Shown piece by piece: positions 295 to 34,388 of a stretch of 43,614 bases of DNA. Made by a program: the position numbers and the translations under genes. The stretch covers positions 99,443,112 through 99,486,725 of the forward strand of contig NC_057718.1 of NCBI RefSeq assembly GCF_004010195.1, read 5' to 3'. The stretch comes from Chiloscyllium plagiosum (lineage: Eukaryota). Below the pieces are notes generated by a model. The model had not been told where the DNA came from, did not search any database, and worked only from the letters and a program-made list of their open reading frames with translations. Numbering within the stretch: position 1 is the first letter of the stretch; every line of letters starts with the position of its first letter.

Positions 295-533
295 GGTGAA
301 AGTGAGGACTGCAGATGCTGGAAATCAGAGTGCAGATTAGAGAAGGGCTGGAAAAGCACAGCAGGTCAGGCATCCAAGGAGCAGGAAAATCAACATTTCG
401 GGCAAAAGCCCTTCATCAGGAAAGGCTTCATCAGGATGAAGGGCTTTTGCCCGAAACATCGATTTTCCTGCTCCTGGGATGCTGCTTGACCTGCTGTGCT
501 TTTCCACAATGGGAGATTGTCACCACACTCTGA
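295..533. mobile_element. Palindromic Penelope-related hammerhead repeat (family A)
   Basis: AAAGTGAGGACTGCAGATGCTGG...GAAAAGCACAGCAGGTCAGG arm followed by its inverted copy. Hammerhead-type core CTGATGAAGGGCTTTTGCCCGAAA on the minus strand at about 392-419. Confidence 0.8.
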
Positions 534-1062
534 TATGGGATGCATCTGCAATTTTCACGCCAAATTCTTTCATTTCCCACTATTTTCTCTTGTCCACTGT
601 TGTTTTAGCTTCTCAAACTACCACTTTAACCTTTCATTTCTGATAAAAATGTTATCAGACATTTGACTCTCATACAGTCTCACCAATCATTGTAACCATG
701 AGAAATCGTCACCAGCTGCATGGTAATTATTGTGAGCTAAATGCACGTAGGCCTGTCTTATTTAGAAAATGATGGTGTGATAAACTTTGTATCACACTAA
801 TTACACTAATTATAGCGCTCATGCGATAATGATCTTAAGAAATCTGTAATCCACGTTGGTGTGGACTCGACATCAAAACACATAATAGCACGGGAAAGAA
901 AATTCATTTCCTCATCGTAACATAATACCTTGACTCAGAAATCTCAATCTGTCATCTGTGAAGAACTAGGATTGACTTTTACATGAGATATACGGAAAAT
1001 TCCAGATCTTTTGGTCAAAAATAGGGTGTCGACTTTTATGTGGGATTGATTTTCACTTGACC

Positions 1063-2918
1063 TCTTTTATTGCAAAAATATACTTTATTCATAGAAAAAA
1101 ATCTTTGGTACATATACAATTAATGAAGCCATTCAGATTGACACTTACAGAGAACGAACTAACTGACGTTCACCATTCTGTATATTTGCCGTCAACCTCT
1201 TGGTATTTAGCTGAGGTGTCAGCGGGGCCCAATTACTGAATGAGTCCCCATTATTCTTCAGCAGAAGGACCTCAGACGGTGGTCTTTCCCCATTGCGCCT
1301 TGGCAGCAATTACTCCAAGCTTCAGCCTGTCCCTCAGCACGTAGTCCTGGATCTTGGAATGTGTCCGTCTGCAACATTCGGTCAGGGTCAACTCCTTCAG
1401 CTGGAAGATCAGCAGGTTTTGGACCGCCCAGAGAGCGTCCTTCACCGAGTTGATGATCCTCCAGGCACAGTTGATGTTCGTCTCGGTGTGCGTCCCGGGG
1501 AACAGGCCGTAGAGCAGGGAGTCCCGTGTCACGGCGCTGCTCGGGACGAACCTCGACAAACACCACTGCATTCCTCTCCAGACTCCCTCTGCATAGGCAC
1601 ATTCCAGAAGGAGGTGTGTGACAGTCTCGTCCCCCCCGCAGCCACTTCGAGGGCAGCGTGCGGTACGGCTGAGAGCCCTTCTCACCACCAGCCAAGCCAT
1701 GTCTTGGTGCTTGTTGGAAAGTTCTGACAATGAGGCATTCTGCCAAATGGCTTTGACAGTCTGCTCAAGGAACCGCTCGATAGGATTTGCCCTCTCCTTT
1801 TCCCGAAGGGTCTGACCACTTCCTGATGGACTTGTGGTCAAAGGTGTTTTTCTTCATAAACTTCTCCACGAAGGACAGGTGATACGGAACGGTCCAACTA
1901 CTCGGAGCGTTCCGCGGCAGCGAGGCCAGGCCCATCCTTCGCAACACCGGGGACAGGTAGAACCTCAGTACGTAGTAACACTTGGTGTTTGTGCACTGGG
2001 GATCCACGCACTGCTTGATGTAGCCACACACAAAGTGTTGGGTGTGTTTATTCCTGCTTTGCCCAGATCTTTATACAACGAGTCCCTCCGGACCCAGTCC
2101 ATCTTTGATCTCCATATAAATTGGAAGGAGTCCCAGGTGACTGCAGCGGCACAGGTTCTGGGAATAGGCCAGACCTGTGCCACGTATAACAGCAATGACA
2201 GTGCCTCACACCTGATGACCAGGTTTTTTCCCGCGATGGAGAGCGACCATAGCTTCCAGTTTCTGCCTCACTTTGCTGATACGCTCCTCCCAAGACTTGG
2301 CGCACGCCCCAGCCCCTCCGAGCCAAATACCCAACACCTTCAGGTTGTCGGTCCAGAGGGTGAAGGGGATCGAGGATTGGTCGGCCCAGTTCCTGAAGAG
2401 CATGGTCTCGCTCTTGCCTCGGTTTACCTTGGCCCCCGAGGCCCGTTCAAACTGGTCACATATGCACATGAGTCTGCGCACGGACAGCGGATCCGAGCAG
2501 AAAACGGCGACGTCATCCATGTACAGGGAAGCCTTAATCTGCAGGCCCCTGCTGCCAGGAATAGTCACCCCTCTCAGGCTCGCATCCTTCCTGATGGACT
2601 CGGCAAATGGCTCTATGCAGCACACAAACAAGGCAGGAGGGAGAGGGCAGCCCTGCCTGACTCCAGATCTGAACTGAAACCTTTCTGAGTCCCACCTGTT
2701 GATTGAGACTGCGCTGATGTTGGTGTAGGGCAGTCGGATCTAATTGCAGACTCCCTCCACTAAACCTATTTTGGAGAGAACCTCTCTCATGTAGGTGTGT
2801 GATATCCTGTCAAAGGCTTTCCCCTGGTCTAGGCTAGTGAGGCAGGTGCCCACCCCCTCTGTCCAGCACGTAGGCGATCGTATCCCTGAGGTGTGCAAGA
2901 CTCTCAGTGATCTTCCCC
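1063..2918 (-). mobile_element. Tx1-clade (L1 group) LINE, 5'-truncated, frameshifted ORF2 plus 3' UTR
   Basis: RT motifs SLDQGKAFDRISH, MFVCCIEPFAESIR and LYMDDV. C-terminal zinc knuckle CPRSGCGGDETVTHLLLEC, stop at 1272. AATAAA signals near 1065-1090 on the minus strand. Confidence 0.9.
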
Positions 2919-2983
2919 TACTCGAGTATATACGGTAATCACGCACAAACCAGGGCAAATGCCTACAACATGCAGTAAAGGTG

Positions 2984-5520
2984 TTCACACACACGCTGTA
3001 CACACACACACCCTTTACACACACACGCTGTATACACACATGCACCCTGTACACACACACCCTATACACACACACGCTGTGCACACACACCCTGTACACA
3101 CACAAACCCTATACACACACATGCTGTGCACACACACCCTGTAAACACACACATCCTGTACACACGCACCCCGTACACGCACATCCCCTGTACACACACA
3201 CAGTACACACACACGCTGTACACACACATAACCTGTATGCACACACGCTGTACCCACACACACACCCCTATACACACACATGCTGTGCACACACACTTGT
3301 AAACACACACATCCTGAACACACCCACCCTGTACACACACCCAGTACACACACACTGTACACACACATACCCTGTATGCACACACACCCTGTATATACAC
3401 ACACACTGTATACACACACACTGTACACACACACCCTCTACACACACACCCTACACACACACACTCTGTACACACGCATACCCTGTACACACACACCCTG
3501 TACACCCACACACTGGACACACACACATACCCTGTGCACACACATACCCTGCACACACACCATGTACACACACACACACACTGTGCATACACNNNNNNNN
3601 NNNNNNNNNNNNNNNNNNNNNNNNNNNNNNNNNNNNNNNNNNNNNNNNNNNNNNNNNNNNNNNNNNNNNNNNNNNNNNNNNNNNNNNNNNNNNNNNNNNN
3701 NNNNNNNNNNNNNNNNNNNNNNNNNNNNNNNNNNNNNNNNNNNNNNNNNNNNNNNNNNNNNNNNNNNNNNNNNACACACACACCCTGTACACACACACAC
3801 ACACCCTATACACACACACGCTGTGCACACACACCCTGTACACACACAAACCCTATACACACACATGCTGTGCACACACACCCTGTAAACACACACATCC
3901 TGTACACACGCACCCCGTACACGCACATCCCCTGTACACACACACTGTACACACACACGCTGTACACACACACCTGTACACACACACACCCTACACACAC
4001 ACACGCTGCACACACACTGTACACACACATACCCTGTACACCCATACCCTGTACGCACATATGCTGTACATACACACCCTGTACACACACACACCCTGTC
4101 CACACACACGCCCTGTACCCACACATATGCTGTACACACAGACCCTGTACACACACATACCCTGCACACACATGCTGTACACACACACATGCTGTACACA
4201 CACATACCCTGTACACATACATGCTGTACACACACAGACCCTACACACACACACACACAGTACACACACATACCTGTACACACGCACGCTGTACACACAC
4301 ACCCTGTACACACACACACTGTACACACACATACCCTGTACACACACGTACCCTGTACATACACACGCTGCACACACACACTGTACACACACATACCCTG
4401 TACACCCATACCCTGTATGCACATATGCTGTACATACACACCCTGTACACACACACACCCTGTCCACACACATGCCCTGTACCCACACATATGCTGTACA
4501 CACACACACCCTGTACACACAGACTCTGTACACACACATACCCTGCACACACATGCTGTACACACACACACACCCTGTACACACACACACTATACATACA
4601 CACTGTACACACACACCCTGTACACCCACACACTGTACACACACACATACCCTGTGCACACACATACCCTGTACATACACACCGTGTACATACACACGCT
4701 GTACATACACACCCTGTCCATATACACACCCTGTATCCACACACACGCTGTACACACACACCCTGTATACACACCCTGTACACACACCTTGTACACACAC
4801 ATGCTATACACACACACCCTGTACACACACAGTACACACACACACACCCTGTACACATACAGTACACACACATCCCCTGTACACACAGTACACACACACC
4901 CTGTACACACACATACCCTGTATGCACACACACCCTGTACACACACACAGTATACACACACACACCCTGTACACACACAGTACATACACATGCTGTACGC
5001 ACACATACCCTGTATGCACACACTCTGTATACACACACACACTGTATATACACACACTGTACACACACACCCTGTACGCACACATACCCTGCACACACAC
5101 ATGCTGTACACACACACATGCTGTACACACACATACCCTGTACACACACACCCTGTACACACACATGCTGTACACACACCCTGTACACACACACGCTGCA
5201 CACATGTACGCTGTACACACAGACCCTGTACACACACACCCTGTACCCACACACATGCTGTACACACACACCCTGTACACACAGACCCTGTACACACACA
5301 TACCCTGTCCACACACACACCCTGTATCCACACACACCCTGTACCCACACATACCCTGTACACACAGACCTTGTACACACACCCTGTATCCACACACACC
5401 CTGTACGCACACACCCTGTACACACACAGACCCTGTCCACACACACCCTGTACACACACCCACCCACACACAGACACACACGCGCACAGACACGTACAAA
5501 CACACACACACGCACTCAGA
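2984..5520. repeat. (CA)-rich complex satellite, unit approximately ACACACACACCCTGTAC
   Basis: Directly visible tandem structure; source of the long H/T/C/V low-complexity ORFs. Confidence 0.97.
3593..3773. other. Assembly gap (181 N)
   Basis: Run of N inside the satellite. Confidence 0.99.
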
Positions 5521-6390
5521 GACACTATAAAAACACGTGGACAGAGATGAAAAGCTGGAAAGACAGTTTACTTGTTTCTGTCTACAGTTTCCGTTGAGTT
5601 GGTTCTTGCTGACCAGAACATTTCTCTCTGGCTTCCCATTCTCAAATGCTTGCCCTGGTTTTCAAGAGGCCCGGGGTGGATATTTCACTATACAATGTCT
5701 GTGATTTTTCTATTAGAAGTCACAGGTAATAGCAAACGCTGAAGGAAGCATGAACTGTGTTTTTCTCAGGTTGAAAGTGCATCTATGTGTGCAGGGTGTG
5801 TGTGTACAGTATGCATGTATGTGTACAGGGTGTGCATATGTGTACAGGTTGTGTGTACTACATATGTGTGTACAGGGTGTGTGCACAGTGTGTGTATACA
5901 GGGTGTATGTGTACAGGGTGTGTGCATGTACACTGTGTGTGTACAGGGTGTGTGTGTGTGTACAGGGTGCATGTGTGTGGGTGTGGGTGTGTGTGTGTGT
6001 CTCTGTGTGTCTGTGTGTGTGTCTCTGTGTGTCTGTGTGTGTGTGTGTGCATGTGTCTGTTAGTGTGAGTGTGTGTGTTGTGTGTGTATGGGTGGGTGTG
6101 TGAGTGTGTGTGTCCGTGTCTGTGTGTGTGTGGTAATGTGCATATGTGTGTTTGTAAGGGGCAGTTTATAATTTGTAACTGATGGTTTATAATTGTTTAC
6201 CTGTAGCTAGTGTCTAACTACATGTAATAAATAATAATTCTTGCAAGTGCAGGAACCCAGTCCGTGCTTCCAATCAACCAAGGTCTGAAAATCGTGTAAA
6301 TCGGGGAATATTGTGTTTAATTTATCTCTGGTGATGAATGTGAGAATAGTGGGGTTTGATTCCCCTTACCCAATGAACTGTGATCCCCTG
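5521..6390 (+). mobile_element. Probable solo-LTR remnant containing a (TG)-rich expansion (5785-6150)
   Basis: TATAAAA near 5526 and AATAAA near 6226 in LTR-like order; termini not resolved. Confidence 0.35.
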
Positions 6391-8804: not shown

Positions 8805-8847
8805 GAAACGGGAGATGTCCGGACCTGCTCGGGTGTACAGCATTAAG
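8805..8847 (+). CDS. Candidate short internal exon (KREMSGPARVYSIK), gene unidentified
   Basis: Branch-like ACTAAT, acceptor ttccaaacag, donor AAG|gtcaga, in non-repeat DNA; phase-compatible with 15285-15330. Confidence 0.25.
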
Positions 8848-9730: not shown

Positions 9731-9759
9731 TGAAAGATGAATTACTCTGGCCCTGTCTC

Positions 9760-10350
9760 AGCTGATCTTCATCACTCCCCTTGCTTACCTCTAGACTCGA
9801 TTGGTCCAGTGTTCTTCTGCTCAGTCTGCCACATCCAAACCTCTCTAAATCCGAGGTCACCTTAAACTCTGTTGCCCTTGTCCTGCACTCATAGCCCCTC
9901 CCCACCCCCGAATTCCATCGTAGCAGCCTAGCTCACCGACCGAGGTTAACCCCAGCAAAGCAATGTCCTGACTTTAAAATTCTCATCCTTGTCCTCAGGT
10001 CCCTCCATGACCTTGCGCTCCCTTTCTCTGTCACCTCCTCTAGCAACGCAGCACCCTGAGCACTCTGTGCTTCTCGAATTCTGATGTTTAGATCAGAGTG
10101 GTGCTGGAAAAGCACAGCAGGTCAGGCAGCATCCGAGGAGCAGGAAAATCGACATTTCGGGCAAAAGACCTTCATCAGGAATTCCGAGCTTTTGAGCATC
10201 TCCAATTTTAAACGCACCCGTTTTGGTGGCGAGACCACTATTTATTCGGATCCCGAGCTCTGGAACCCCCTTCCCAAAGCTCTCTGCCTTCCTCTCTCTC
10301 TTCCTCTCAGACATTCCTGAAAACCTCTACCCCTTTGGTTGATCTTTCGA
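9760..10350 (+). mobile_element. L2 LINE 3' fragment
   Basis: TTTAAAATTCTCATCCTTGTC (FKILILV) and CTCTGGAACCCCCTTCC (LWNPLP) motifs. Confidence 0.7.
10085..10178 (-). mobile_element. Single-arm hammerhead repeat (family A) inserted in L2
   Basis: Core CTGATGAAGGTCTTTTGCCCGAAA on the minus strand. Flanked by GAATTCTGA (10076-10084) and GAATTCCGA (10179-10187). Confidence 0.75.
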
Positions 10351-10377
10351 GCAGCTGACCTGTGTGCCTCGATCATC

Positions 10378-10552
10378 GTCAAAAGTCACATGACACCAGG
10401 TTATAGCCCAACAGGTTTATTTAAAATCACAAGCCTTGATGAAGGGGCAGCTCTCCGAAAGCTTGTGATGTTAAATATACCTGGTAGATGATAATCTGGT
10501 GTTGTGTGACCTTTGACTTGGTCCATCTCAATTCAACACTGGAACCTCTACA
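10378..10552. mobile_element. Palindromic hammerhead repeat (family B)
   Basis: Inverted arms around TTGATGAAGGGGCAGCTCTCCGAAAGCTTGTG. Confidence 0.7.
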
Positions 10553-10559
10553 CCTTGAT

Positions 10560-11055: not shown

Positions 11056-11137
11056 TATCTAATTTTAATTTAGAATATTGCTGAACACTGCCATGGAAAA
11101 TGTTGCTACATTGAAGATTCTACGCAGATTTCTTAGC

Positions 11138-11245
11138 GTTCTGAAGGAGGGTCACTGGACCTGAGATGTTAACTCTGCTTTCACAAGCCAGTTTCTCCAG
11201 CAACGTCTGATTTAGCCTCTGATTTCCAGCATCCGCAGCTCTTTG
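11138..11245 (+). mobile_element. Decayed hammerhead repeat (family C)
   Basis: GTTCTGAAGGAGGGTCACTGGACCTGAGATGTTAAC followed by GATTTCCAGCATCCGCAG. Confidence 0.6.
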
Positions 11246-12745: not shown

Positions 12746-12774
12746 CAATGCCTAACTATATCTAATTAAGGAAG

Positions 12775-13260: not shown

Positions 13261-13299
13261 CCAAAGAATCTCATGTGTTCGGGCTATTCTTATGAAGAA

Positions 13300-15330: not shown

Positions 15331-16039
15331 GTAAGTCATTGGGAGTTAGGTCATCTATTGGTCTGTAATCTGGAGTTGCTGTTTCCTGATAGAACGCTGA
15401 GGCAGACCCGCAAGTATAGTTATATTGCAGCCAGCTGAACATTAACATCATCGCTCCATTTGTAAAATCTGCTATCACGGCTGCCAGCAGAGAACCTTTG
15501 ATACCACTCAGTCACAATTGCACCTATTATTGTGTCAAGTACATAGCATTGGAAAATAAAGATTATTATAACTCATTGTATTCCATAACATGGGAACGTG
15601 AACTTAGTAAAAGAGGAATTCTTTTCTTTTCACATTCAACATTTCTTCTGATCTGAGTCACTGCTTGATATCCCAAACAGTTTTAAAATGCACTTTGAAA
15701 AGCTCTACAAACTATAGTGCCTTTAAATAAACTTCACAACTCATAACGCCCCTTTATACTTTCTGACAAAGACCCCAAAGCACCTTCAAGCCAGAAAAAG
15801 ATCATCTTTTTTAAACTGTCAACACGACCAGTGAAAGAAGATAAGGTGTTTTATTTTTCTGTTAAGTTATGAACATTTGCCTGTTTATGTGAGTTCTCAG
15901 TTCTGAATTGGGAATTCTAAAAGTGAAGCAGATTGTAGTGAGGGAAGGGAAAAAAAAAACAGAGAAAGCAGAAACAAGATCAGACATTGCTGGAGAAACT
16001 CAGCAGATCTGGCAGCATCTGTGGAGAGAAAGCAGCTCT

Positions 16040-16362: not shown

Positions 16363-16369
16363 GTAGAAA

Positions 16370-16505: not shown

Positions 16506-16999
16506 CATCCGGGAAGGTGTTGAGTGCCTCAAGACTTGCTGTCGGGAAAAAGCAGAAACCGGGGTGGGGGTGTGGGAAACATGGAAATGAGCGCGCTGCC
16601 TCACCAAAATCCCAATCCCCCCCTTCCCTTGACCACCACCTGCCTCAGTGTAACAGAGCCTGCAGTAGTCCCATCTCTCTATACAGCCATCCACGGACTC
16701 ACCCTGGGATTGGGAGAGAGTCATCCCAGCCCGTGAGGGACCGCCAATGATGCTGATCAGGAATGTTTAGGGTCCTGTGACCTTATATCAGGACTAAAGT
16801 TAACTGAAAAATTAACTCTCCTCTCTCTCTCCTCAGATGCTGAGCTTCTCCAGCAATTTATTTTATTGTAGTAAGGGAGAGATTTCCTTAAAACAGAAAG
16901 TCCTTTCGATCAGACTGAACTGATTGTGAGAGAAGGGAAAGCTGATTCAATAATAATAATTTTGGAACTTTCTCCACATTAAAGGTGGTCCCATTAGGG

Positions 17000-17170: not shown

Positions 17171-17969
17171 CTTTGCTACTGCAGTACAGTGGGTGCCTTA
17201 TGACCTGAGGACTGAGCAGTTCAGGAAGGCAGCTCACCACCACCCATTCAGGGGCAACTAGGAACAGGTGATACATGCTAGACCAGCCAACAGCAACAGC
17301 ACATCTTGTGAATGGGAGGAAGGCCTTTCCATTGACACATACTTGGAATCATTCCAACATGGAGCAGCTCAGCACAGAGACGGGTCACTTGGCCTGTTGT
17401 GTCTGCACTAGCCCTTTCCATGAGGAAGCCAACTCCACCCATTCTTCTCCTCCCTCCCTCCAATTCTTTCCCTACAAGGGATGCATGCCATTCCTTGTCG
17501 AATCCGTGCCCAGCGTGCTCCCAGGGACCACATTCCAAATCTGCCACGTCTGTCAATCACCTTCATTGCACCTGCTCCTGAAGGGCAACCAGAGGAACTA
17601 TGTTGTGTTGAATAGTACACCTGGCACCTCCTGCCACCCCACCATCCCGTGCATGTCTACTTGAGGTCAGTGACTAAAGTTCTCCTTCTTTGGTCCAATT
17701 GGAAAAGAGGGATCTGCTGGGAAACGGGGAAAGGGGAGGCTGGGGAATGTGGAACCAATTCCCTGCTGCTATTTCCCATGCCCTTCTGTGATAATGTACG
17801 CAAATGCGTGCCGTATCTCATTATCAGCAGGCCTTTGGGTTTTGCCCTATGTCTCTGGGCATTTCACTTTCTTTAATAGGATTTCCTTTGCCTGACCGGC
17901 ATTGTGGTCAGCCTCTCACTTGACCGCTGAATCAACGTCTGTTCACCGAGCGATGGGCACCTGCCTTGC

Positions 17970-18666
17970 AAACAGGAAGAAAGGAGGGGCACGCACACCT
18001 ATCCACATCTACAAAGCTGAGATGGAGAGGGTGAACAGCGTCAAGTTCCTCAGAGTGACGATAACTGACCACCTGTCTTGGTCTTCCCACGTAGCTGTGG
18101 TGGTCAGGAAGACACAACAACACCACTTCTTCCTCAGGAGGCTAAGGAAATTCAGCATGTCCATAAGGACCCTCACCAACATCAACAGATGCACAATAGA
18201 AAGCATACTGTCCAGGTGCATCACAGCCTGGTACAGCAACTGCTCTGCCCAGGGCAGTGAGAAACTACAGAGGGTGGTGTGCACAGCCTAGACCATCATG
18301 GAAGCCAACCTCCAACACACGGATTCCATTTACACCTCTCGTTGCCGCGGGGAGACTGCTAACATCATTAAAGACCCCTCCCACCCGGTAATACTCTCTT
18401 CCACCCTCTTCCCTCATTCAGAAGGTACAGAAGCTTGAACACACACACCAACAGATTCAAGAACAGCCTCTTGCAGGTGTTATTAGACTGAAATGACCTC
18501 TCAAATTTGAAATCTAATGTTGATCTTGCTTTTTGTCCACTTCCTTTGTAGCTTTACCCTTATACACCTCACTCTGTTCAGTCCTTATATGCTGTCTACC
18601 TGTACTGCTGGCAAAACCAAACTAGTCACTACACTTAGGCACATGGGACTACAATAAATCAAATCA
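17970..18666 (+). mobile_element. Rex1/Babar-clade LINE 3' end
   Basis: KFLRVTITDHLSWS...FFLRRLRKF...RCTIESILSRCITAWY; tail ACAATAAATCAAATCA. Confidence 0.9.
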
Positions 18667-18739: not shown

Positions 18740-18821
18740 AATCAAGGTCGAGAGTGTGGTGCTGGAAAAGCACAGCAGGTCAGGCAGCATCCGAGGAGCA
18801 GGAGAATTGATGTTTTGGGCC
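18740..18821. mobile_element. Hammerhead repeat family A arm fragment
   Basis: GTGGTGCTGGAAAAGCACAGCAGGTCAGGCAGCATCCGAGGAGCAGGAG. Confidence 0.75.
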
Positions 18822-19504
18822 CATTGATTGTTTTTAAGTGAGAGGTAGATAGGTTCTTGTTAGGGAGGCGAATCAGGGGTTAATTGCCCGGGAGTTGGCG
18901 GGGGAGGGGAGGAGTGGTTTTACATAGGAATGTGGAATTCAAAACACAACCACTTCAGCCAGGATCTTATTGAGTGGTGGAGCAGGCTTGGGGTGGCTGC
19001 AAGACAGTCTACTTCTCCTATTCTATATGAGTGTGCGTCAGCTTGGGTCAAAACCAGGCATCAATCATCCAAACTATCAACATCCAGGGTGGAGCTTTTA
19101 CATCGTTTAGCACAAGTTGTCCTATTTGCTGTTTTGTGCTTTCAAACTGCCAGAAATAGGAGCAGGAGTTGAATATAATCACCCCCCCCCCCCCCCCCCA
19201 GCCCAATCCTGAGGCTGCTCTGGCATTCATTAAGACTGTGTCTGTGCTTTGGTTTCAGATTCCATTTTCCACCTTCCTTCAATCACTTGCCGACCAAACT
19301 ACTCTGGCAACAACTGAGCATCCACACTTTGGTTGAAGTTATTTCCCTTCATAGAGCCATAGGGTTAGAGAAACGTGACCCTTCGGCCCAACTCGTCCAT
19401 GCTGACCGGATACTCTAAATTCATCTGGTCCCATTCGCCAGCACCCGGCCCACATCCCTCTAAACCCTTCCTATTCATATACCCATCCAGATGCCTTTTA
19501 AATA

Positions 19505-19620
19505 TTAGAAGTCAAAGGACACTAGGTTATACCCAACAGGTTTATTTGAAATCACAAGCTTTCAGAGTCCACCTGATGAAGGAGCAGTGCTCTGAAAGCT
19601 TGTGATTTCAAATAAACCAG
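19505..19620. mobile_element. Palindromic hammerhead repeat (family B)
   Basis: GGTTTATTTGAAATCACAAGCTTTCAGAG / CTCTGAAAGCTTGTGATTTCAAATAAACC inverted arms. Confidence 0.8.
19570..19604 (+). ncRNA. Minimal type I hammerhead ribozyme motif
   Basis: CAC-CUGAUGA-A-GGAGC-AGU-GCUCU-GAAA-GC-UU-GUG: stem I CAC/GUG, stem II with one G-U pair, palindromic AAGCUU in place of stem III. Confidence 0.7.
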
Positions 19621-21116: not shown

Positions 21117-22126
21117 GTTCAGACCCCCATAGCCTGGTGACAGCAATTCTGCTGCTGTATCTGCAGTGCCATGTTAGAGAAGAACGACTCCCCCCCCCCC
21201 CCCATCTCATTAAATGGCCAATTTGGAGCACATTTGGGAGGTTTCTAAAATCAATAATTTGAATTTACTCAGCTGTACCTTCCTGGCCTTTCTCACTGTT
21301 CAAACGCTAAATAAAGATTTTTGTACCTGTTGCTTTGGGAGCTTTGGGACTGTATGCAGCTGCTTTTTTTCTCAAAGAATCCTTCACCTTTTTGACCTCC
21401 ACCTACAGCACTGGGTCACTTGGGAGGTGACACACACTTTCATAGGCCAGGCCAAGCAGTCGGTTTCCTTTAGCTCCTGTTCACACACAGAGCCATATTA
21501 GCTCAGTTTAGGTACCATCGTTACATTCCTATGAGATTACGATACTTCAAGCTACTCCTGGGGCCTCACGCCTCAAGAAATGGGAATTTTCACTTGCTCT
21601 GTTCCATTTTCAAGGCTGTTTCTGCTTTGATACTGATCTCTAGTAAACCCTAGTGTGGGATTAACATCAAGAACTGCCACCCTGAAGTGCGACCTGGTTG
21701 GTCTCTGTTTTAAAACTTTTCAATTGTTCGTTTGACATCACTGATTGATAGGTTTTATTTTCGCCAAAGGGTATTAAGGGATATGTGTGGCTGTCCAGAG
21801 ATAGTTCACACATCGCTTTGAACGGTTGGAATGCCGTAAAGTACAAATGGTCTCCTTCTTTTCCTGCCTTCCAGGTTTTTGTAATCCTCCCTTTTTTGAT
21901 CTGTTCATGAGAAGTGGGTGTGTTGGACTGAGCTTGCATTTGTTACTCGTCCCTAGTTGCCCTTGACAAGGTGGGGGTAAGCTGCCTTCTTGAACCATGT
22001 AGGTAGGCCCACAGTGCTATAAGGGAGAGAGTTACAGAATTTTGACCCAGTGACAGCCAAGGAACAGTGCTACATTTCCAAGACAGGATGGTGAGTGGCT
22101 TGGAGAGGAACCTGCAGATGGTGGTG

Positions 22127-22250
22127 ATCAAGGGCTTTTGCCCGAAACATTGATTTTCCTGCTACTCGGATGCTGCCTGACCTGCTGTGCTTTTCCTGCA
22201 CCACTCTAATCTAGACTCTGATTTCCAGCGTCTGCAGTCCTCACTTTTGC
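22127..22250. mobile_element. Single-arm hammerhead repeat (family A); donor of the copy at 26503-26862
   Basis: AAGGGCTTTTGCCCGAAAC...CTGCAGTCCTCACTTTTGC. Confidence 0.85.
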
Positions 22251-23910: not shown

Positions 23911-24996
23911 GTAACATCCACCAACAGGTACTCAGCGATTTGACTGCTTTGCTCTGAAATGTTTTGCATTCCTAAAAGCTAATTAGATGGCCATTCAGTT
24001 TTATAAGGCTTGCACCTGCCATGCACTGATCCAACCAGCAACTCATATTAAATATGCAATCCCCTTTTCCCCTGCTTTCTGGAATAATCACAATAATATC
24101 AGTAGAACACTGAAAGACAGCTCCTATAGACCTGACCAATTTTTGTCCTTCATTAATGTTACTAAAAGCAATTATCTGTGGACTGGGATCAGATGCGCAC
24201 TCAGTTGAGTGCATTAATGGATGCCACTGAATATCACTATATAAAAGGGATGATAAGAAACAGAAGTTCACTAAATGTAGGGGATTCTAAGAGAGGGCAT
24301 CCTCTGGAAGCCTGCAGACTCACATTCCAGTTTCACCTCCCACCACTGTGACATAGTTCCTCCTGCAGCTGCTGGTTAGTTATTCTGTCAGTAACACAGC
24401 AGATAACCCTTTACTCCACTAATACATGGTAGGGCTGGCACACAGAAATACCTCACCAGCAAAAATGAAAGATTGAGGGGATAACTTAGTCTTTAGGGTA
24501 TGCTGGTGCAGACTCCATGGCTGAATTGCCTCATTCTGTGATACTAGATGGATAGAGATTTGATTTTTTGAAAAGTTATCAAGGGGCAGGTGCTGTTTGT
24601 GATGATCATATGGAATGTGTCTGTTTTATTCATCTGTGGGGTGTGGGCATTGCTGGCTGGGTCAGCGTTTATTGCTCGTCCTTTGAAAAGGTGGTGGTGA
24701 GCTGCCTTCTTGCAGTCCATGCGCTGGACCCTTGACCTTAGGAAAGGACTCGTGTGGTGAAGTGGCAGTGTCCTTACCTCAGGGCCAGAAGTCTGAATTC
24801 AAGTCCCCCGTTCCACTTTTTTAGATGTGCTTACAATGCTAAGCAGCTCTGAGCTTAGGACAGTGACTGAAATGAAACACAATTGAATTGAAGAATTGTG
24901 CGTTGATAAACATTTCAGTTGGAAAATGCAGGTGTCATTAATGTTGTGAGTTGAGTGGAGTAGCAGTAATGTCACTGGGCTAGTAATCTAGTACGC

Positions 24997-25199
24997 CAAA
25001 GTGAGGACGGCGGATGCTGGAGATCAAGTTAAGAGTGTGGTGCAGGAAAAGTACTGCAGGTCAGGCAGCATCCAAGGAGCAGGAGAATCAACGTTTCAGG
25101 CAAATGCCCTTCATCAGGAAACTTTTGCCCAAAGTGTTGATTTTCCTGCTCCTCGGATGCTGCCTGACCTGCTGTGCTTTTCCAGCACCAAACTCTCGA
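24997..25199. mobile_element. Palindromic hammerhead repeat (family A) with ~16-bp TSD
   Basis: TAGTAATCTAGTACGC (24981-24996) / TAGTAATCTCGTACAC (25200-25215); core on the minus strand near 25090-25117. Confidence 0.85.
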
Positions 25200-25479
25200 T
25201 AGTAATCTCGTACACTCAGGATAATGCTTTGGGGGCACTGGTTCCAATCCTACTACAGCAGATGAGAGATATTTAGACTCAGGTAATATACCTGGAATTG
25301 AAAACTTTCCTCAGTTATAGCAACCATAGAACTTTGTATAAAAAAATCCCACATGGTTCACCCATACCCTTGATTGAAGGAAATCTACCATCTTTGCCTG
25401 GTGTGACCTACTTGTGACTCCACGTGCAATGTGGATGACTCTTAACTACCCACTGAACTGTACTGGCAAGCCATGCGGA

Positions 25480-25752
25480 GATGCAAATAGAAGTTACTGG
25501 AAAAGCTCAGTAGATCTGGCAGCATCTGTGGAGGGAAATCAGGAGGTAACATTTTGGGTCTATTGGAGTTAACCAGAATTAACGTTTTGGGTTGAGTGGT
25601 CCTTCCCCAGAACTATTCTGAGGAAGGGTCACTAGACGCAAAATGTTAACTCCTAATTAAGCTCCACAGACGCTGCCAGACCTGCTGAACTTTTCCAGCA
25701 ATTTCTATTTTTGTCTCTGATGTACAGTATCTGCAATTCTTTTGATTTTTAT
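25480..25752. mobile_element. Palindromic hammerhead repeat (family C)
   Basis: CTGGAAAAGCTCAG..GATCTGGCAGC arm, its inverted copy, and decayed core CTGAGGAAGGGTCACTAGACGCAAAATGTTAAC at 25618. Confidence 0.75.
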
Positions 25753-26084
25753 TTAGTTCCAGGGCAATCAGTACAGAGTCAAAATATTACTTCTGTTTTC
25801 TCACTCCACAGATGCTGAGTTTCTCCAGCATTCTCCATGTTTGTTTCAGATCTCCAACATCCTCAGTTTTTTGCTTTTATTTAAGGGCAATGAATGATGG
25901 GTAATAAATGTTGGCCTTAATTGTCAGTGACACCCATGTCCCCTGGAAGCAGACATAATGATTAACCGTATGCCCCATTTTGCCCTGGAGTTAACATCAT
26001 TTTACGGATAAATGTTGACCAAGACATGAAAGCAGCTCTGGACTTGGTGAGGAATGTAATTCTACCTTCACAACATAAAGTGTC

Positions 26085-26940
26085 GGGATCACTGGGTAGA
26101 TGCTACAGGAAGGATATCATAAAATCGGAGAGGATTCAGGAGAGCTAGCAAGATATTGCCAGGAATGGAGGGCTTGAGTTATAAAGAGAGGCTGGATAGG
26201 CTGGAACATCTTCCTTAGAGCCTAGGAGGTTGAGAGATGACATTATAAAGGTTTATAAAATCAGTAGAGGTATAGTTAAGGTGAACAGCAAAGGTCTTTT
26301 CCCGAGGGTGGGAGAGCTCAAAACTTAGGGGCATAAGTTTAAGATGAGAGGGGAAAGATTTAAAAGGGTGGGTCATATGTCGGAGGAAGTGGTAGATGCA
26401 GGTACAATTCCAACATTTAAAAGATATTTGGGCAGGCACATGAATAGGAAAGCTTTGGATGGACATGGGCCAAATGCAAACAATTGGGAGTAGATTCGTT
26501 TATGCAAAAGTGAGGACTGCAGATGCTGGAGATCAGAGTCTAGATTAGAGTGGTGCTGGAAAACCACAGCAGGTCAGGCAGCTTCCAAGGAGCAGGAAAA
26601 TCAACGTTTCGGGCAAAAGCCCTTGATCACCACCATCTGCAGGTTCCTCTCCAAGCCACTCACCATCCTGTCTTGGAAATGTAGCACTGTTCCTTCACTG
26701 TCACTGGGTCAAAATTCTATAACTCCCTCCCTTATAGCACTGTGGGCCTACCTACATGATCCAAGAAGGCAGCTTACCTCACCTTGTCAAGGGCAACTAG
26801 GGACGTTTCGGGCAGGAGCTGCCTGACCTGCTGTGCTTTTCCAGCACCACTCTAATCTTGACAGTAGATTCGTTTAAGACACTTGGTCTGCTTGCTTTGA
26901 TTGGGCCGAAGAGTCTGTGTCCATGTTGTATGACTCTATG
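26085..26940 (+). mobile_element. CR1 3' end interrupted at 26503-26862
   Basis: TTGAGTTATAAAGAGAGGCTGGATAGGCTGG (LSYKERLDRL); tail TTGGGCCGAAGAGTCTG...GACTCTATG. Confidence 0.85.
26503..26862. mobile_element. Composite hammerhead-repeat insertion carrying captured flanking DNA, 14-bp TSD
   Basis: AGTAGATTCGTTTA at 26489-26502 and 26863-26876; 26504-26805 matches the reverse complement of 21948-22250. Confidence 0.9.
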
Positions 26941-27925
26941 ACATAGGAGCGGAAGTAAGGCCATTTGGCCCATCGCGTCCACTCCGCCATTCAATCATGG
27001 CTGATGGGCATTTCAACTCCATTTACCCGCATTCTCCCCGTAGCCCTTAATTCCTTGTGACATCAAGAATTTATCAATCTCTGCCTTGAAGACATTTAGC
27101 GTCCCGGCCTCCACTGCACTCTGTGGCAATGAATTCCACAGGCCCACCACTCTCTGGCTGAAGAAATGTCTTCGCATTTTTGTTCTGAATTTACCCCCTC
27201 TAAGTCTAAGGCTGCGTCCACGGGTCCTAGTCTCCTCGCCTAACGGAAACAATTTCCTAGTGTCCACCCTTTCCAAGCCATGTATTATCTTGTAAGTTTC
27301 TATTTGATCTCCCCTTAATCTTCTAAACTCCAATGAATACAATCCCAGGATCTTCAGCCGTTCCTCATATGTTAGACCTCCCATTCCAGGGATCATCCAC
27401 GTGAATCTCCTCTGGACACGCTCCAGTGCCAGTATGTCCTTCCTGAGGTGTAGGGGCCAAAACTGGACACAGTACTGCAAATGGGGCCTAACCAGAGCTT
27501 TATAAAGTCTCAGTAGCACAACCCTCTTGAGGTAAATGACAACATTGCATTCGCTTTCTTAATCACGGACTCAAACTGCATGTTTTCCTTTAGAGAATCC
27601 TCGACTAGCACTCACAGATCCTTCTGTACTTTGGCTTTATGAATTTCCTCGCCATTTAGAAAGTAGTAATGTGAACAGCTGTGGCCCCAACACTGAACCC
27701 TGCGGGACACCGCTTGTCACCGGCTGCCATTCCAAAAAAGAACCTTTTATCCCAACTCTCTGCCTTCTGTCAGACAGCCAATCCTCAATCCAAACCAGTA
27801 GCTCACCTCGAACACCATGGGCCCTCACCTTGCTCAGCAGCCTCCCGTGTGGCACCTTATCAAAGGCCTTTTGGAGGTCCAGATAGACCACATCCACTGG
27901 GTTTCCCTGGTCTAACCTACTTTTA
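26941..27925 (-). mobile_element. Relatively young CR1 LINE, ORF2 3' part with internal deletions
   Basis: VDVVYLDLQKAFDKVPH...SGVPQGSVLGPQLF and a 168-aa open C-terminal ORF (LYKALVRPHLQYCVQFW...WNSLPQSAVEA). Confidence 0.95.
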
Positions 27926-28489
27926 ACGCTCGCTTCTCCAACACCCTCACCGCCAACCTTTGCATCGAGTCCTTGCCCGTCTGAGACCTCCTGCCAGTCT
28001 GACCTCTTCACTGGTGGCCGTGTCTTCGGGAATCCAAATCAATGTCGGCTTCCCTCAACCCTTCCTGCCCTGCACCTCTCCCTCCCCCTTTAACACACTC
28101 TTTAATCTCTCCTTCTTTGATATAAGCAGTCCTCGTGTGTAGCGGTCTCACATTCGGTTTGCGTTTGGAGCTGCTCAAAGCGCGGACTTGCTGTTTGACT
28201 CGACTCTGTTCTCAACTTGTACCAGTGTTACACTTTTCCATCCTGACCTGTCCCTCACTCAGCTCCTGTCTTAACATGTCATTTCTCATCACGTTTTTTA
28301 TTTCTTTCTCAAACAGTTCACTCACCAGCAGGTCATTTACATTTAAGATACAAGTATATTTGTCTTCCCCACCTCCCTTGACATATTTATAAATTCAATA
28401 ACATGTATCAACTTATCATTAAGTTAATCCCTCCCTTCTTGGCTCCCAGAGTTTCATCTCATTTTCACCATTACTTGCCCATCCCACTT

Positions 28490-28790
28490 TAGAACAATAG
28501 AAATCTAGAGCACAGAAAAAGACCCTTTAGATCATCAAATCTGTACCGACCAACTATTCTCATACCATTTTCCAGCACTTGCCCCATAGCCCTGGCCTGC
28601 CCTGTTACCACAAAAGTGCGCATCTAACTATTTCTGAAATGTTCTGAGGGTTTCGGACTCTCCTGTCCCCACAGGCTGTGAGTTCCAGATTCCCACCAGC
28701 CTCTGGGTGAAGCTGTTCCTCACATCCCCTGGATACCTTAAATCTACGCCCCAGCTCATTGATCCCTCATTCAAGTGGGAATAGTTTTGC
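28490..28790 (-). mobile_element. Decayed CR1 3' fragment
   Basis: GAGTTCCAGATTCCCACCAGCCTCTGGGTGAAG motif and (TAGAA)-type tail. Confidence 0.7.
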
Positions 28791-28896
28791 ATCTCTTAGT
28801 TTGTCATTTTGCTGGGTTGGCTTGACTGAGTGGTTAGCTGATTTGTCTGGAGAGCTGGTCTGCAGTGCCGAGTGAGGCCAATGGTGTGGGTTGTAG

Positions 28897-29412
28897 CGAG
28901 TTTTGAGAAGATTTGTAGCTCCAGTTGAGGTTCTGGATGTAGGTTTGCTCGCTGAGCTGGAAGGTTCATTTCCAGACATTTTGTCACCCTACTAGGTAAC
29001 ATCTTCAGTGGGTCTCAGGCAAAGCACTGCTGAATATTCCTGCTTTCTATTTTGTATGTTTGGGTTTCTTTGGGTTGGTGATGTTATTTCCTGTGATGAA
29101 GTCACTTCCTGTACCTTTTCTTGGGGGTGGTAGATGGGGTCTAACCTGATGTGTTTGTTGATAGAGTTCTGGTTGGAATGCCATGTTTCTAGGAATTCTT
29201 GTGTGTGTCTGTGTTTGGCTTGTCCTAGGATGGATGTGTTATCCCAGTCGAAGTGGTGTCCTTCCTCATCTGTATGTAAGGATACTAGTGAGCTAGAGTC
29301 ATGTCGTTTTGTGGCTAGTTGATGCTCATGTATCCTGGTGGCTAGTTTTCTGCCTGTGTGTCCAATGTAGTGTTTGTTACAGTTCTTGCAAGGTATTTTG
29401 TAAATGTGGGTT
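28897..29412 (-). mobile_element. Penelope-like element 3' part: GIY-YIG endonuclease fragment plus terminal region
   Basis: IYKIPCKNCNKHYIGHTGRKLATRIHEH...HHFDWDNTSIL...EFLETWHS...SINKH in ORF 28992..29453. Confidence 0.93.
28972..29011 (-). ncRNA. Decayed hammerhead ribozyme of the Penelope element
   Basis: CCA-CUGAAGA-U-GUUACC-UAGUAG-GGUGAC-AAAA-UG-UC-UGG. Stem I CCA/UGG and stem II are retained; GAAA is mutated to AAAA. Confidence 0.7.
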
Positions 29413-29536
29413 GTCTTCCTGTACTGGCTGAGGTTGCCACAGAGAGTATTCAACCTCTCCCCTTCCCTGAGATGAGGTGACCCTCAGGTTAAACTGCCAT
29501 CAATTGTCTGCCTCTCTCCCTTATGGTTTAGTAAAA

Positions 29537-29802
29537 AAAATATCAAAAATCGTGGCACTGGAAAAGCACAGCCGGTCAGGCAGCATCCGAGGAGCAGGAG
29601 AGTCAACATTTCAAGCATTAGCCCTTCATCAGGAATGAAGAGCTTATGCCCGAAACATCGATTCTCCTGCTCCTCGGATGCTGCCTGACCGGCTGTGCTT
29701 TTCCAGTGCCACACTTTTTGGTATTGTTTTACTAAACCATAAGGGATCCAGCCACCACTCTCTCGACTCTGATCTCCAGCATCTGCAGTCCTCACTTTCT
29801 TC
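29537..29802. mobile_element. Palindromic hammerhead repeat (family A) with an inverted target copy
   Basis: Inverted arms centred near 29632; TTTAGTAAAA at 29527-29536 and 29803-29812. Confidence 0.85.
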
Positions 29803-29923
29803 TTTAGTAAAACGATGCTGTCTTTACCTTACACTTTGTTTCTGTTTCTGTCCTTCCACAAAGATTTTGCATAACCATTGATAATGTACAGGCTTTTTGC
29901 AGGAGAAGGAACACTTTTTTAAG

Positions 29924-30600
29924 GTTATTATGGTGCCAGTTGATGATACTACAGGACAAGTCAGAACGCAGAATAAAACCTGGATTGATAGATCATGTTT
30001 CTTCTTGTTTGATTAGTTAAGGTGATGGTTGATGATTGAAACATACTCACGAGGCAGTAGATTTTCTTTAACAACAGAACAGAAGTTTATTATGCAAAAG
30101 AAGGAAAAAAGTCAATCTGAGGTATCTCAATATTGAAGGCAGTTAGATGATCTTAAAACATACGGCCTAATAAAGTTTCCTAACACTATCCATTACAGAG
30201 AGTCAAATCTAAAATAACTATATTCCCACCCCAATTCTTCAGGGTTCTAATATAACTGACTTCTGGCAGTTTCTTTGCTGTAGGCTGTAGAAGTAATTCA
30301 GTGAGTCCTTTCAATGATAGTCAATACAAACTTGACACGAACCTGACAGCCTACACTTTCTCAGTTCTAATAATCTGCAGATTTCTCACCAAATTCTCCT
30401 GGTTTGAAAGTTTCACAAACTCTCCTGTTCCACTGAAGTGACTGGTTCCCGGTTCAGCCTTAGACTTGAGGAGAGAAACTAAACTTGCTTCTAAACTCAT
30501 CCCCAGTATCTTCTGAACTGAACTTACAAATCAAATTCCCAGTCCTAGAAAGAAACTTGCTCAGTTAAATAAGCTTTTAGGTTTGCAGGGACATTATTTC
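29924..30600 (-). mobile_element. LTR-like repeat copy 1 (homologous to 31614-33045; extent beyond 30600 unclear)
   Basis: Shared blocks such as ACACTATCCATTACAGAG and CTGCAGATTTCTCACCAAA..TCCTGGTTTG.AAGTTTCACAA. Confidence 0.55.
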
Positions 30601-31855
30601 TAAATTCTTTCATAATCATAATTTCACTCATTTCTCAAAGCTTTTTTTCCAAATTCAGTGATCAAAACCATAGGTCCCACAGCTTTCTTATTCCCTTGCA
30701 AATTCCCCACACGGCTTATTAGCTTTCTTTTCTATTGATCTATTTTAATTGATAAGCCACAGACGCAAGCTTGGAAGTGTTGAGTAATTTTTAAAAAAAC
30801 TTTTGTACTTCTGCAAAATGTTTTTCGAACAATCTGGTGGACACATTCATAGTTGTATCTCTCTAAACATTCCGTGAGATCGTTTTCCGAGCAACACACT
30901 CTCGGCTCTGATCTCCAGCAATTGCAGTCCTCACTTTCTCCTGTAAGATTGAGGTCCAATGTTACACCACTTTGTCTACCTGCCTGCCTTTTCAAATGAG
31001 GTTTCAACTCCATTCTCTGTAAATTTTGATGCTAAATGTAGATTTTTTTAGTTAAAAATCACTCATGGGAATTGAATCATCTTTGAGTTGTCACCTCCCC
31101 TCCAGGTTTTTCTCTCCCTATTGTTTGATTTATCCCTTCCTGAAGTTCAAGCTTTTTAAATTCCATTTTCATTACTCTTCAATTTCTCCCAATTCCATTT
31201 TTGTCCCTTTATTTTATTCAAACTCAAATTCCTTTCACCATTTCCGTTGGAATCTTTGTTAATTATAATGGCAATGTCTCAGTTTTAAGTTTCCCTCTTA
31301 CTAATTGTAAAAGCTGAGTAATTACTTTAGGTTTGTCATCCTTATGATACCCCGCTTTTATTTAGACTTTCAATATAGCTGCTTTTTCAGTTTAGCCTAA
31401 GTCAAAGATTTCAAGTAATTTACTTTTATCTCTTCTACCCTCAGAAAAGCCTTAGCAGAACTCAGAGTTATTTCAAAAATCCAATCCATGTAATAAATAT
31501 CACCACAACGCTCCTGTTTTCTGTCCCGAAATGTCACGCAGAAGTTCTTTCAGAAGAGACACAAATCCTTCTTAAACTCAATTGATTCAAATCCCAGTCA
31601 AAGCCTCCCATGTTGTTATAAGCCCATCTGACGGCACAAGGGGACATGTCAGATTTCAGAATGAAACTTGGAAATTTTCTTTTTAATTTGCTCTTAATCT
31701 CGTGGCTGGTCACTGAGACATATTCACATGAGGCTGCATTTTTATTTTAAGCAGCAGAACAAGGGTTTATTACACAAAAGAGAAATGCAACAGGCAAAGA
31801 TATCCAAATATCAGACTCAGCTAGAATGACCTCAAATCTCACAACAAAACAAATC

Positions 31856-32087
31856 CAGGTCGTTCTGCTTTAACACGTGTTACATCAGTGCAAATTGGCT
31901 AGAATGCGATTGATGAATTGTAGACGCTGTTTGGATAAGATAAAATTTCTGCTGAATGGTTATAGTGATTTTCTATTTGCGATCGTGTACAGTGAGATTT
32001 TCTCGATAGCGCGATTCCCATAGCGCGATTTCCTATTGCGCGGGTCTGCAGGCGAACGCAACTGTCACGTTATGGCAGAACAAGCTG
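31856..32087. mobile_element. Tigger-like (TcMar) MITE
   Basis: TIRs CAGGTCGTTCTGCTTTAAC / GTTATGGCAGAACAAGCTG; internal TAGCGCGATT repeats; TA TSD not preserved. Confidence 0.7.
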
Positions 32088-32568
32088 CCCAGCCTATTTC
32101 CTGACACTATCCATTACAGAGTCGACACACCTATCTCTTTACAGTTTTACAACACCGACTCCTTAAAATCTCTTTCCCACAGGCTGTAGAGACAACATGG
32201 TGAGACCTTTCCAAGCCTATCAGTATGAACTATTCGCAGATCTGACAGTCTACACTTCCTCAGTTCTAATGACCTGCAGATTTCTCACCAAACTGTCCTG
32301 GTTTGGAAGTTTCACAACTAAACACTTGTGCTGAGGTTCTGAGGAAATGTTAACGGACCCAAAACATTAACTCTGGTTTCTCTTCACAGATGCTGCTAGA
32401 CCTGCTGAGGTGATTGGTTCCTTGAACAGCCCTAAACCCCTTCTGGAGACAAACAAACCTTCCCTTCTAAACTTAACCCCCTTCTGTCTTCCAAACTGAG
32501 CTTAAAACAACTTTCTCAACTCCAAATGCTTCTGAAATGGAAACAAAGTTTACATATTTATCCATCTG

Positions 32569-32773
32569 CTGAAAAATGTGTTGCTGGAAAAGCGCAGCAG
32601 GTCAGGCAGCATCCGAGGAGCAGGAGAGTTGATGTTTTGGGCATAAGCCCTTCTTCAGGAATGCCCGAAATGTCGATTCTCCTGCTCCTTGGATGCTGCC
32701 TGACCTGCTGCGCTTTTCCAGCAACACATTTTTCAGCTCTGATCTCCAGCATCTGCAGTCCTCACTTTCTCCT
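32569..32773. mobile_element. Palindromic hammerhead repeat (family A)
   Basis: About 90-bp inverted arms; imperfect TSD ATATTTATCCATCTG / ATATTTACACATCTG. Confidence 0.85.
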
Positions 32774-33310
32774 ATATTTACACATCTGTCATAAATCCAT
32801 TCCATTCATTAACACCATAGGGATCTGCAGTTAGTTTCTTTCTGAAAAAGTGCTGGATTGAGTCATTATGTCAGAGAGAATCTCTGGCCTTGTTTTTGTT
32901 TTAACAGAAACCCCTTCACACAGGTAACCAATACTCATCTGGCTCTAATCTGAAATCTGAATTCTAAAAATAACGTTAACATTTATAAATTATACAGCTT
33001 TTATTACATCAATAAACCAAAATGATTAAAAGTCCTTTCTTAACATGATTTCTATGTTACAGTAACAGCAATAATATAGTTACATCTGTTTGTATTAAAC
33101 AAATAATAAATTTTGCAACTTTGCATATCATTTAAATCTATTTGGATCACAGCATTTGGTTTTGTTCAGATGTGTTCTTAGGAATGGAATGACGGTCCTT
33201 ATTTCAATAAGGTTGGAGTACATGAGTAGGGGTCTCGGAGTAAAACTATACAAGGTACTAGTGAGACCACATCATGTATACTGGGAGTTGCTTTGGTCCC
33301 CTTATTGAAG

Positions 33311-33520
33311 AAAGTGAGGACTGCAGATGCTAGAGGCCAGAGTTGAAAGTGTGGTGCTGGAAAAGTGCAGCAGGCCAGGCAGCATGCGAGCAGGAGAATC
33401 GACATTTCGGGCATAAGCCCTTCTTCATTGCTGACGAAGGGCTAATGCCCGAAACGTCGATTCTCCTGCTCCTCGGATGCTGCCTGGCCTGCTGTGCTTT
33501 TCCAGCACCACACTTTCAAC
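33311..33520. mobile_element. Palindromic hammerhead repeat (family A) with a perfect 14-bp TSD
   Basis: TCCCCTTATTGAAG at 33297-33310 and 33521-33534. Confidence 0.9.
33431..33460 (+). ncRNA. Minimal hammerhead ribozyme core, catalytic residues intact
   Basis: CUGACGA-A-GGGC-UAAU-GCCC-GAAA-CG-UC; stem I is poorly paired in this copy. Confidence 0.65.
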
Positions 33521-34388
33521 TCCCCTTATTGAAGGAAAGACATCATTTCATTGGAGACAATTCAAGAGACGGTTCACTAAGATGATTCCTGGGATGAAGG
33601 GATTGTCTTATGAGCAAATGTTGAGCAGGTTGGGACTCTACTCCCTGGAGTTTAGGAGTATGGGATGTGCTCTGAGAGGATGTTTCCCCCTCATGGGAGA
33701 GTCTAGGATTAAAGGGTATAGTCTCAGAATAAAGGGGCACCAATTTCAGACTGAGATGGAGAGGAATTTCCTCTCTCAGAGGTTTGTGAGACTTTGGAAC
33801 TCCTTGCCATAGAGAACTGTGAAGGCGGATTGCTTGTATATATTTAAGGCTGAGGTAGATAGATTCTTGTTCAGTCAGGGGATCAAGGGTTATGGGGAAA
33901 GGGCAGGAATGTCAGATCAACCATGATCCTCTTGAATAGGCTCGAGGGGCTGAATGGGCTATTACTGTTCCCATTTCTTATGGTCTTATTGTCTTTGCTA
34001 GCCAAGCAAATGATTAACAAATATACAGTTGGCGTTTTAAACGCCAATGAAGCAACCCTAAGTGATTTTCCCAAGATGTCTCCAAAACCAAAAATTGAAA
34101 GATTGTAGTCTGAATGAATAACAGTTTCTTCCACATTGCTGGATATATAAACTGCTGCAGATTGGTGGATATGCAAGTTGATGCAAAATGATCAACGCAA
34201 GACTCAGCCTTCTGTGAGAAATGAAAACATTCACAAAAGTAACAACCAACCATCAGTCTCAATTTTGAAATCCAAAATTGATATGAATATATGAACAAAT
34301 TATAGGCCTTGCAACACCGCGTCTGAAGTGTGATTCATTGCGGGTTTTATAATATGGCATCTAGAGTTTGTACTTTTTGATGGCGTAG

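Follow-up and report, generated by a model that had tools for sequence, protein, structure and literature searches.

Hammerhead-bearing palindromes in a shark genome as probable stub insertions of a Penelope-like element

In a 43,614-nt stretch of repeat-rich vertebrate DNA from the shark Chiloscyllium plagiosum (the window), we analyzed a short non-coding repeat, here called family A, that carries a predicted minimal hammerhead ribozyme and is often found as a palindrome; contigs of four public runs and published papers were used alongside the window. It is highly probable, in our judgement, that family A represents the end module of a Penelope-like element (PLE) of the endonuclease-positive type, namely the end of its pseudo-long terminal repeat (pLTR) with a minimal hammerhead, about 60 nt and an optional tail of 34–37 nt, inserted repeatedly in the smallest form possible. 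Reverse transcription primed close to the RNA 5′ end would leave a stub of about 130 nt, and two joined stubs would form a palindrome. An earlier note on this DNA had instead proposed a new class of retroposons, built from ribozyme-processed RNA and inserted by PLE machinery. Insertion by that machinery agrees with our results, with the inverted truncated copy, the one-sided tail and the variable duplications all fitting the published PLE pattern; the class is not new, since inverted copy and one-sided tail are that very pattern, and family A is a further, shark member of it. We found no description of this shark family in an open library, the search having been made outside Repbase, Dfam and subscription journals; among the titles listed there, nothing relevant came up on misclassification as miniature inverted-repeat elements either.

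Family A sequence was present at all ten places that the earlier note had listed (295, 10085, 18740, 22127, 24997, 26503, 29537, 30890, 32569 and 33311, used here as locus names). A core pattern allowing up to three mismatches gave 10 matches in the window, against 0.02 expected from shuffles, and a strict minimal-hammerhead descriptor gave five (three in family A and one each in the sister families C and D, described below), against none in each of 30 shuffles. An Rfam scan of the window returned 18 weak matches, none of them to a hammerhead, with weak microRNA-like matches on the hairpins. The hairpins of some 200–250 bp that had been reported as full copies were found as five simple palindromes of 202–257 bp (295, 24997, 29537, 32569 and 33311); the other loci comprised one composite (26503), with 175 nt of another repeat at its centre, and four solo arms (10085, 18740, 22127 and 30890). 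Head-to-head inverted, 5′-truncated copies thereby occurred at six of ten loci, and poly(A) was absent from all of them, as had been stated.

Missed by the earlier note was that the two arms of each palindrome are unequal by 34–37 nt, one being long and the other short. One tail end was common to eight pieces; of the eight short arms, seven stopped no more than a few bases from another site, 34–37 nt earlier. Both 3′ ends recurred in contigs of the four public runs, where they were followed by heterogeneous AT-rich letters; this and the other public-run results on arm ends hold among the matches listed, and contigs, two of the four runs being guessed RNA, cannot reveal starts, ends, strand or expression. 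The long arm lies on the minus strand and the short arm on the plus strand at 298–506 (long arm 298–422, starting 3 nt before the core; short arm 435–506, ending early), at 24995–25199 (short arm truncated in loop II) and at 33308–33520 (short arm with the sole exact core, 33431–33458). At 32568–32773, a short minus-strand arm starting 4 nt before the core faces a long plus-strand arm truncated in loop II, and at 29537–29802 a short minus-strand arm is followed by a plus-strand mirror copy, which includes a 20-nt copy of flanking DNA, and then by a 55-nt tail piece. The composite at 26503–26862 consists of a long arm (−), the 175-nt flank of the 22127 arm, a small templated junction piece and a short arm (+, 26818–26862). 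The solo arms are short at 10086–10182 (−; starting 4 nt upstream of the core, with a mismatch in stem II) and at 18745–18823 (−; 5′-truncated within stem II), long at 22124–22250 (+; embedded in a different repeat, which extends to either side of it) and a tail-only fragment at 30878–30942 (+).

Target duplications were tested at nine of the loci against 400 random pairs, with 22127 examined separately. Clear duplications of 14–15 bp were found at four of the nine, each with p ≤ 0.0025: 14 bp with one mismatch at 24997 (24981–24994 / 25200–25213), 14 bp without mismatch at 26503 (26489–26502 / 26863–26876), 14–15 bp at 32569 (two mismatches over 15 bp) and about 14 bp at 33311 (33297–33310 / 33521–33534; 17 bp if overlap with the element end is counted). 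A fifth locus, 29537, had an exact 10-bp duplication (p 0.03). Values for 295, 10085, 18740 and 30890 were not above chance, and 22127 had no target duplication. The earlier report of duplications of 14–16 bp was thus borne out at four loci only. With short, palindromic, abundant and duplication-flanked units of hairpin look, family A resembles in size and appearance the miniature inverted-repeat transposable elements (MITEs) that are moved by a DNA transposase. Such an origin is nonetheless extremely improbable and is already contradicted, because the ends are unequal by 34–37 nt, the duplications are variable and long (10–15 bp) rather than TA or 8 bp, the centres differ in every copy, four of the ten loci are solo arms and one copy carries donor flank. 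On this point, that family A is no DNA transposon, we agree with the earlier note, and hairpins of this type should be annotated neither as MITEs nor as microRNA precursors.

An inverted 5′-truncated copy together with a one-sided tail of 30–40 bp is typical of PLEs (Craig 2021, PMC8557442), and rotifer PLEs display head-to-head inverted pLTRs, duplications of 8–10 bp and solo pLTRs that capture unrelated sequence (Arkhipova 2013, PMC3846280). PLE insertions share with family A the head-to-head arrangement, the one-sided tail (here 34–37 nt), variable duplications, AT-rich sites, lack of poly(A), microhomology junctions, solo pLTRs, captured unrelated DNA and a hammerhead within the pLTR. Family A differs from published PLE insertions in that the whole insertion is the pLTR end, with a sharp boundary 3–5 nt before the core and with duplications of 14–15 bp.

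We determined the 5′ ends of 17 arm pieces from alignments, counting relative to the first core base and with the predicted cut at +29. Six ended at −3 to −5, four at +2 to +4, three at +12 to +17 and three at about +52 to +78, one was a read-through, and none ended at the cut; sequence 5′ of the cut was kept in 13 of the 17. Since, in addition, one core-damaged copy was itself copied again (see below), the template RNA does not appear to have been ribozyme-cleaved, and the earlier claim of a ribozyme-processed inserted RNA is not supported. At loose ends in two of the public runs, the consensus was likewise lost just before the core or turned into letters resembling an inverted arm. In the palindromes one arm begins 3–5 nt upstream of the core, its partner 2–15 nt inside it, with no palindrome (0/5) having two complete CUGANGA cores. 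In two palindromes it is the long arm that is complete, in three the short one, which implies that both DNA ends prime.

These ends bear directly upon the possibility that the mobile unit is a ribozyme-processed, possibly circular RNA with the hairpin, belonging to a retrozyme-like class. Non-LTR retrozymes, like family A, are non-coding and PLE-related, have a type I hammerhead and show long duplications when these are present; they form head-to-tail tandem arrays giving rise to cleaved monomers and circles (Cervera and de la Pena 2020, PMC7229834; Li 2026 bioRxiv), they are PLE-derived, and they are present in a chondrichthyan (bioRxiv 10.64898/2026.07.22.740005). The family A motif also matches the published minimal PLE hammerhead consensus, and one junction piece at 26503 does end at the predicted cut, although 4 nt of microhomology explains that end equally well. 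Family A, however, is dispersed, head-to-head and uncleaved, with units not bounded by cleavage sites (0/17), with no two complete cores in a palindrome, with junctions that are all different, with a fold buried in the hairpin and with a core-damaged donor that was re-copied. Moreover, no head-to-tail array was found in a scan of 8000–43614 or in a self-comparison of the window. We therefore regard a retrozyme-like unit as very unlikely and as largely refuted already.

The re-copied element is the solo arm at 22127. Its core is damaged, with positions 3 and 8 changed and the first stem I pair broken, and it is the likely donor of the copy at 26503, which lies 4.2 kb away in inverted orientation and holds the 22127 arm together with 175 nt of its host-repeat flank (21948–22123, +), at 94.7% identity over 303 nt. 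The locus 26503 also has a new short arm and its perfect 14-bp duplication. The damaged core is common to both, and a core-damaged copy thus served as template. This donor–daughter pair suggests local templating, in which the template may have been a read-through RNA or nearby DNA reached by a switch. The swapped core positions 3 and 8 (G3 and C8; 22124–22131 and 26623–26630) correspond to a known partial-rescue mutant, which we rejected as probably a coincidence arising from the junction plus a point change, stem I being broken. As a separate observation, a 169-bp inverted duplicate of an otherwise decayed non-PLE repeat is found at 41714–41882 and 43157–43325, 99% identical and 1.27 kb apart; it may be a recent local templated copy, a conversion or an assembly artefact, and as the sequence is not of PLE origin, local copying would occur also without PLE ends.

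The centre junctions were all different among the five simple palindromes. Four of them are explicable by fold-back or by annealing across an inverted microhomology of 2–4 nt, one of these (295) after the 12-nt slipped duplicate that forms its centre. We aligned 15 arms, leaving out two tail-only pieces and excluding CpG-prone columns, and found a divergence of 5.9% between arms of one insertion (6 pairs) versus 13.2% between loci (99 pairs), the alignment ends being noisy. Arms of one insertion had rare variants in common, and CpG decay was independent in each arm. The mirror arm is probably made anew at each landing. At 29537 the mirror arm carries 20 nt of the left flank (29517–29536, mirrored at 29727–29746), after which the tail resumes; that stretch can only have been copied from DNA at the site, and it directly records DNA synthesis by fold-back in insertion or repair.

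By sequence comparison with PMC4209133, the family A motif fits the minimal PLE hammerhead consensus, the likeness including CUGANGA, one bulged base, a stem II opening with G-C, GAAA, a palindromic stem III, UH, a short stem I and a mostly solo occurrence. With core matches far above those in shuffles, we classify it by its sequence, in agreement with the earlier note, as a Penelope-type minimal hammerhead of type I. Stem II is short (4 bp) and stem I consists of 2 bp, a mismatch and then 1 bp; 35 of 36 stem II cells pair, three of them as G-U, with no two-sided changes. Of the 17 arm pieces just one, at 33431, has the core exactly as it had been spelled in the note, with the first stem I pair broken; departures elsewhere are mostly CpG-type changes, and position 7 is variable in the public contigs. 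Nor is it supported that two inverted cores make a working unit, as had been supposed: no palindrome has both complete, one core is antisense on any palindrome transcript, and the other is predicted to be buried in the hairpin. Predicted stem II pairing probability was at most 0.03 in all four whole palindromes folded, with values of 1.0, 0.48, 1.0 and 0.07–0.19 for arms alone. We propose that the hammerhead belongs to the RNA cycle of the parent element and not to the palindrome. Hammerhead pairs on opposite strands, 100–700 bp apart, were in some cases described in 2014 (PMC4209133); a search with six terms found no shark names in the supplement of that paper, the files covered being those other than file 1. 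Core-pattern scans gave no matches in viral contigs and none in metagenomes, whereas five loci obtained with a shorter pattern were rejected as chance bacterial matches, the match being confined to the 23–25 nt of the pattern.

At least four minimal-hammerhead families are found in the 44 kb. Family B forms a palindrome at 25485–25741 (both strands; short arm left, long arm right), A-like downstream of the hammerhead and with different stems I and II; further pieces lie at 11134–11245, 15982–16035, 16807–16869, 25780–25891, 32332–32409 and 41564–41663. A family D palindrome at 19510–19620 (both strands) has its minimal hammerhead core at 19573 and AGCU instead of ACGU in stem III, with a second copy at 10383–10520. 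Both families are also head-to-head, the pairs being centred on the hammerhead's 5′ edge; for one palindrome of each, the boundaries being rough, no target duplication was found. Across families A–D, stems I and II retain pairing despite different sequences, with ACGU or AGCU in stem III; the copies are few and decayed. The comparison, made after dropping two misregistered family B rows, is an informal one. The stem II covariation that the earlier note had asked about is not borne out by two-sided changes within family A, and between families it would amount to different stems that still pair.

Family C is a 5′-truncated Penelope remnant at 28893–29450 (−), in which a GIY-YIG piece (29417–29115) precedes a minimal hammerhead of the family's own, with the core at 29008, and the pLTR end. 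The GIY-YIG match (Pfam E 0.00027) was just under the curated cut-off. Best relatives were found in Stegostoma (80–86% identity), Chiloscyllium and Hemiscyllium, and the shark relatives carry reverse transcriptase domains. When PLE proteins were compared with the translated window, this remnant gave the only match. A Penelope reading frame leading into a module of this kind is represented by the remnant in front of the family C hammerhead; none was found for family A. The remnant happens to lie 70 bp from the family A insertion at 29537.

Taken as a pLTR-end insertion, family A could have arisen as follows. The PLE protein would introduce nicks into the two strands of AT-rich DNA, spaced by about 14 nt, as the target duplications and the in vitro behaviour of a lizard PLE suggest. 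Each DNA end would then prime reverse transcription inside the uncleaved RNA, starting at one of two fixed sites 34–37 nt apart that correspond to the two observed 3′ ends, with one long and one short arm as the result. Copying would pass the hammerhead and stop at the observed boundary 3–5 nt before the core, which would most simply be the beginning of the RNA. The cDNA end would fold back or anneal to the other cDNA at 2–4 nt of inverted microhomology, giving the head-to-head palindrome; the unique junctions, and the DNA-level copying seen in one case, are consistent with this step. If one side only were kept, a solo arm would remain, and nearby DNA or read-through RNA would sometimes serve as template. 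The copies would thereafter decay neutrally. For Poseidon of Anolis carolinensis, it was found in vitro that both strands are cleaved and extended, with AT-rich DNA preferred, that there are two internal RNA start sites with a spacing equal to the tail, and that hammerhead cleavage is dispensable, with uncleaved RNA as template (Frangieh 2024, PMC11167929). Two start sites and extension of both strands account for a long arm next to one side of the duplication and a short arm next to the other. Poseidon is nevertheless a different family, and the accessible parts of that study do not contain reconstituted inverted joining or a fixed 5′ stop.

The 5′ boundary at −3 to −5 may be set by the start of the transcript, by a short RNA that serves as dedicated template or by a block that the folded or paired hammerhead imposes, and this plurality of causes is one of several points that weigh against our interpretation as a whole. 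The junction at 24997 has neither microhomology nor a stable fold, and the palindrome partner was the nearest neighbour for just seven of 12 paired arms. The duplications cluster at 14–15 bp and so exceed the 8–10 bp known for rotifer PLEs. The GIY-YIG remnant belongs to family C, which is distinct from A; peptide searches found no coding parent of family A (none; two candidates, neither scoring; one unrelated repeat-rich protein), although such blanks are weak, and among the matches listed no loose end in the public contigs led into an open reading frame.

A dedicated template is a possible, though clearly less favoured, source of the boundary. The template would then be a non-coding RNA of about 130 nt, a non-autonomous PLE derivative comparable to a short interspersed nuclear element, and the RNA source would differ while the insertion mechanism stayed the same. 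The sharp 5′ boundary, the existence of several subfamilies, the absence in the window of any arm extending upstream into element sequence, and a stop in one subfamily within a short reading frame that might be the start of an open reading frame would all be in line with such an RNA. Penelope itself, however, has an internal pLTR promoter (PMC2377424), so that an autonomous RNA may begin at this place; the pLTR of rotifer PLEs holds the first codons of the open reading frame (PMC3846280), and in another subfamily the frame is open to the tail end.

A block at the hammerhead leads to a different and, in our estimate, unlikely scheme, in which two uncleaved RNAs pair via the stem III palindrome and a PLE dimer copies one of them per DNA end of a break staggered by 14 nt. 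The paired hammerheads would halt the enzyme and join the cDNA ends, thereby placing the junction at the hammerhead, and where the fold is damaged, copying would run on and carry host flank, preferentially from nearby loci. Such a stop would suit families A, B and D, in which junctions lie at the hammerhead's 5′ edge despite different flanking sequences, as well as the stem III palindrome kept as ACGU or AGCU, and the sole copy with a core-damaged donor, in which copying went 175 nt further; the lizard PLE protein, which extends both strands, has also been modelled in dimeric form (PMC11167929). Hammerhead catalytic mutants, on the other hand, left insertion unchanged in vitro (PMC11167929), Naiad PLEs give the same inverted insertions without canonical hammerheads (PMC8557442), a transcript beginning immediately upstream of the core explains this boundary as well, fold-back on DNA is seen at 29537, and when two copies were cofolded the best structure was not the hammerhead dimer. 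If true, the scheme would give the ribozyme a non-catalytic role and answer a standing question on PLE hammerheads.

The value of family A as material is that many minimal insertions record late steps of PLE insertion that are unresolved, namely second-strand synthesis and inverted joining; its two fixed 3′ ends, fixed 5′ stop, duplications of 14–15 bp and individual junctions bear on what the hammerhead is for. In public run X1, 194,320 contigs matched 1.1 kb of the window, with a summed depth of 2–10 million on the arms versus 12–30 on unique flank. Although summed depth is no copy number, this hints at 10^5 copies or more, in keeping with the high copy number that had been put forward earlier. 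One X1 contig covers 32756–33330 with nine differences and one contig of run X8 crosses the 33311 boundary, whereby these insertions are common to related organisms, and old.

The window also contains broken reverse transcriptase remnants of the long interspersed nuclear element type at 1272–2739 (−), 27013–28038 (−) and 17896–18291 (+), with domain matches to RVT_1 (2209–2739 and 27640–28038), ALKBH8_N (17896–18288) and, weakly, zf-RVT (1275–1853). The first of these adjoins a long CA-rich minisatellite of 15/17 bp with an assembly gap, at about 2900–6150, and a 31-bp minisatellite occupies the end of the window (43420–43614).

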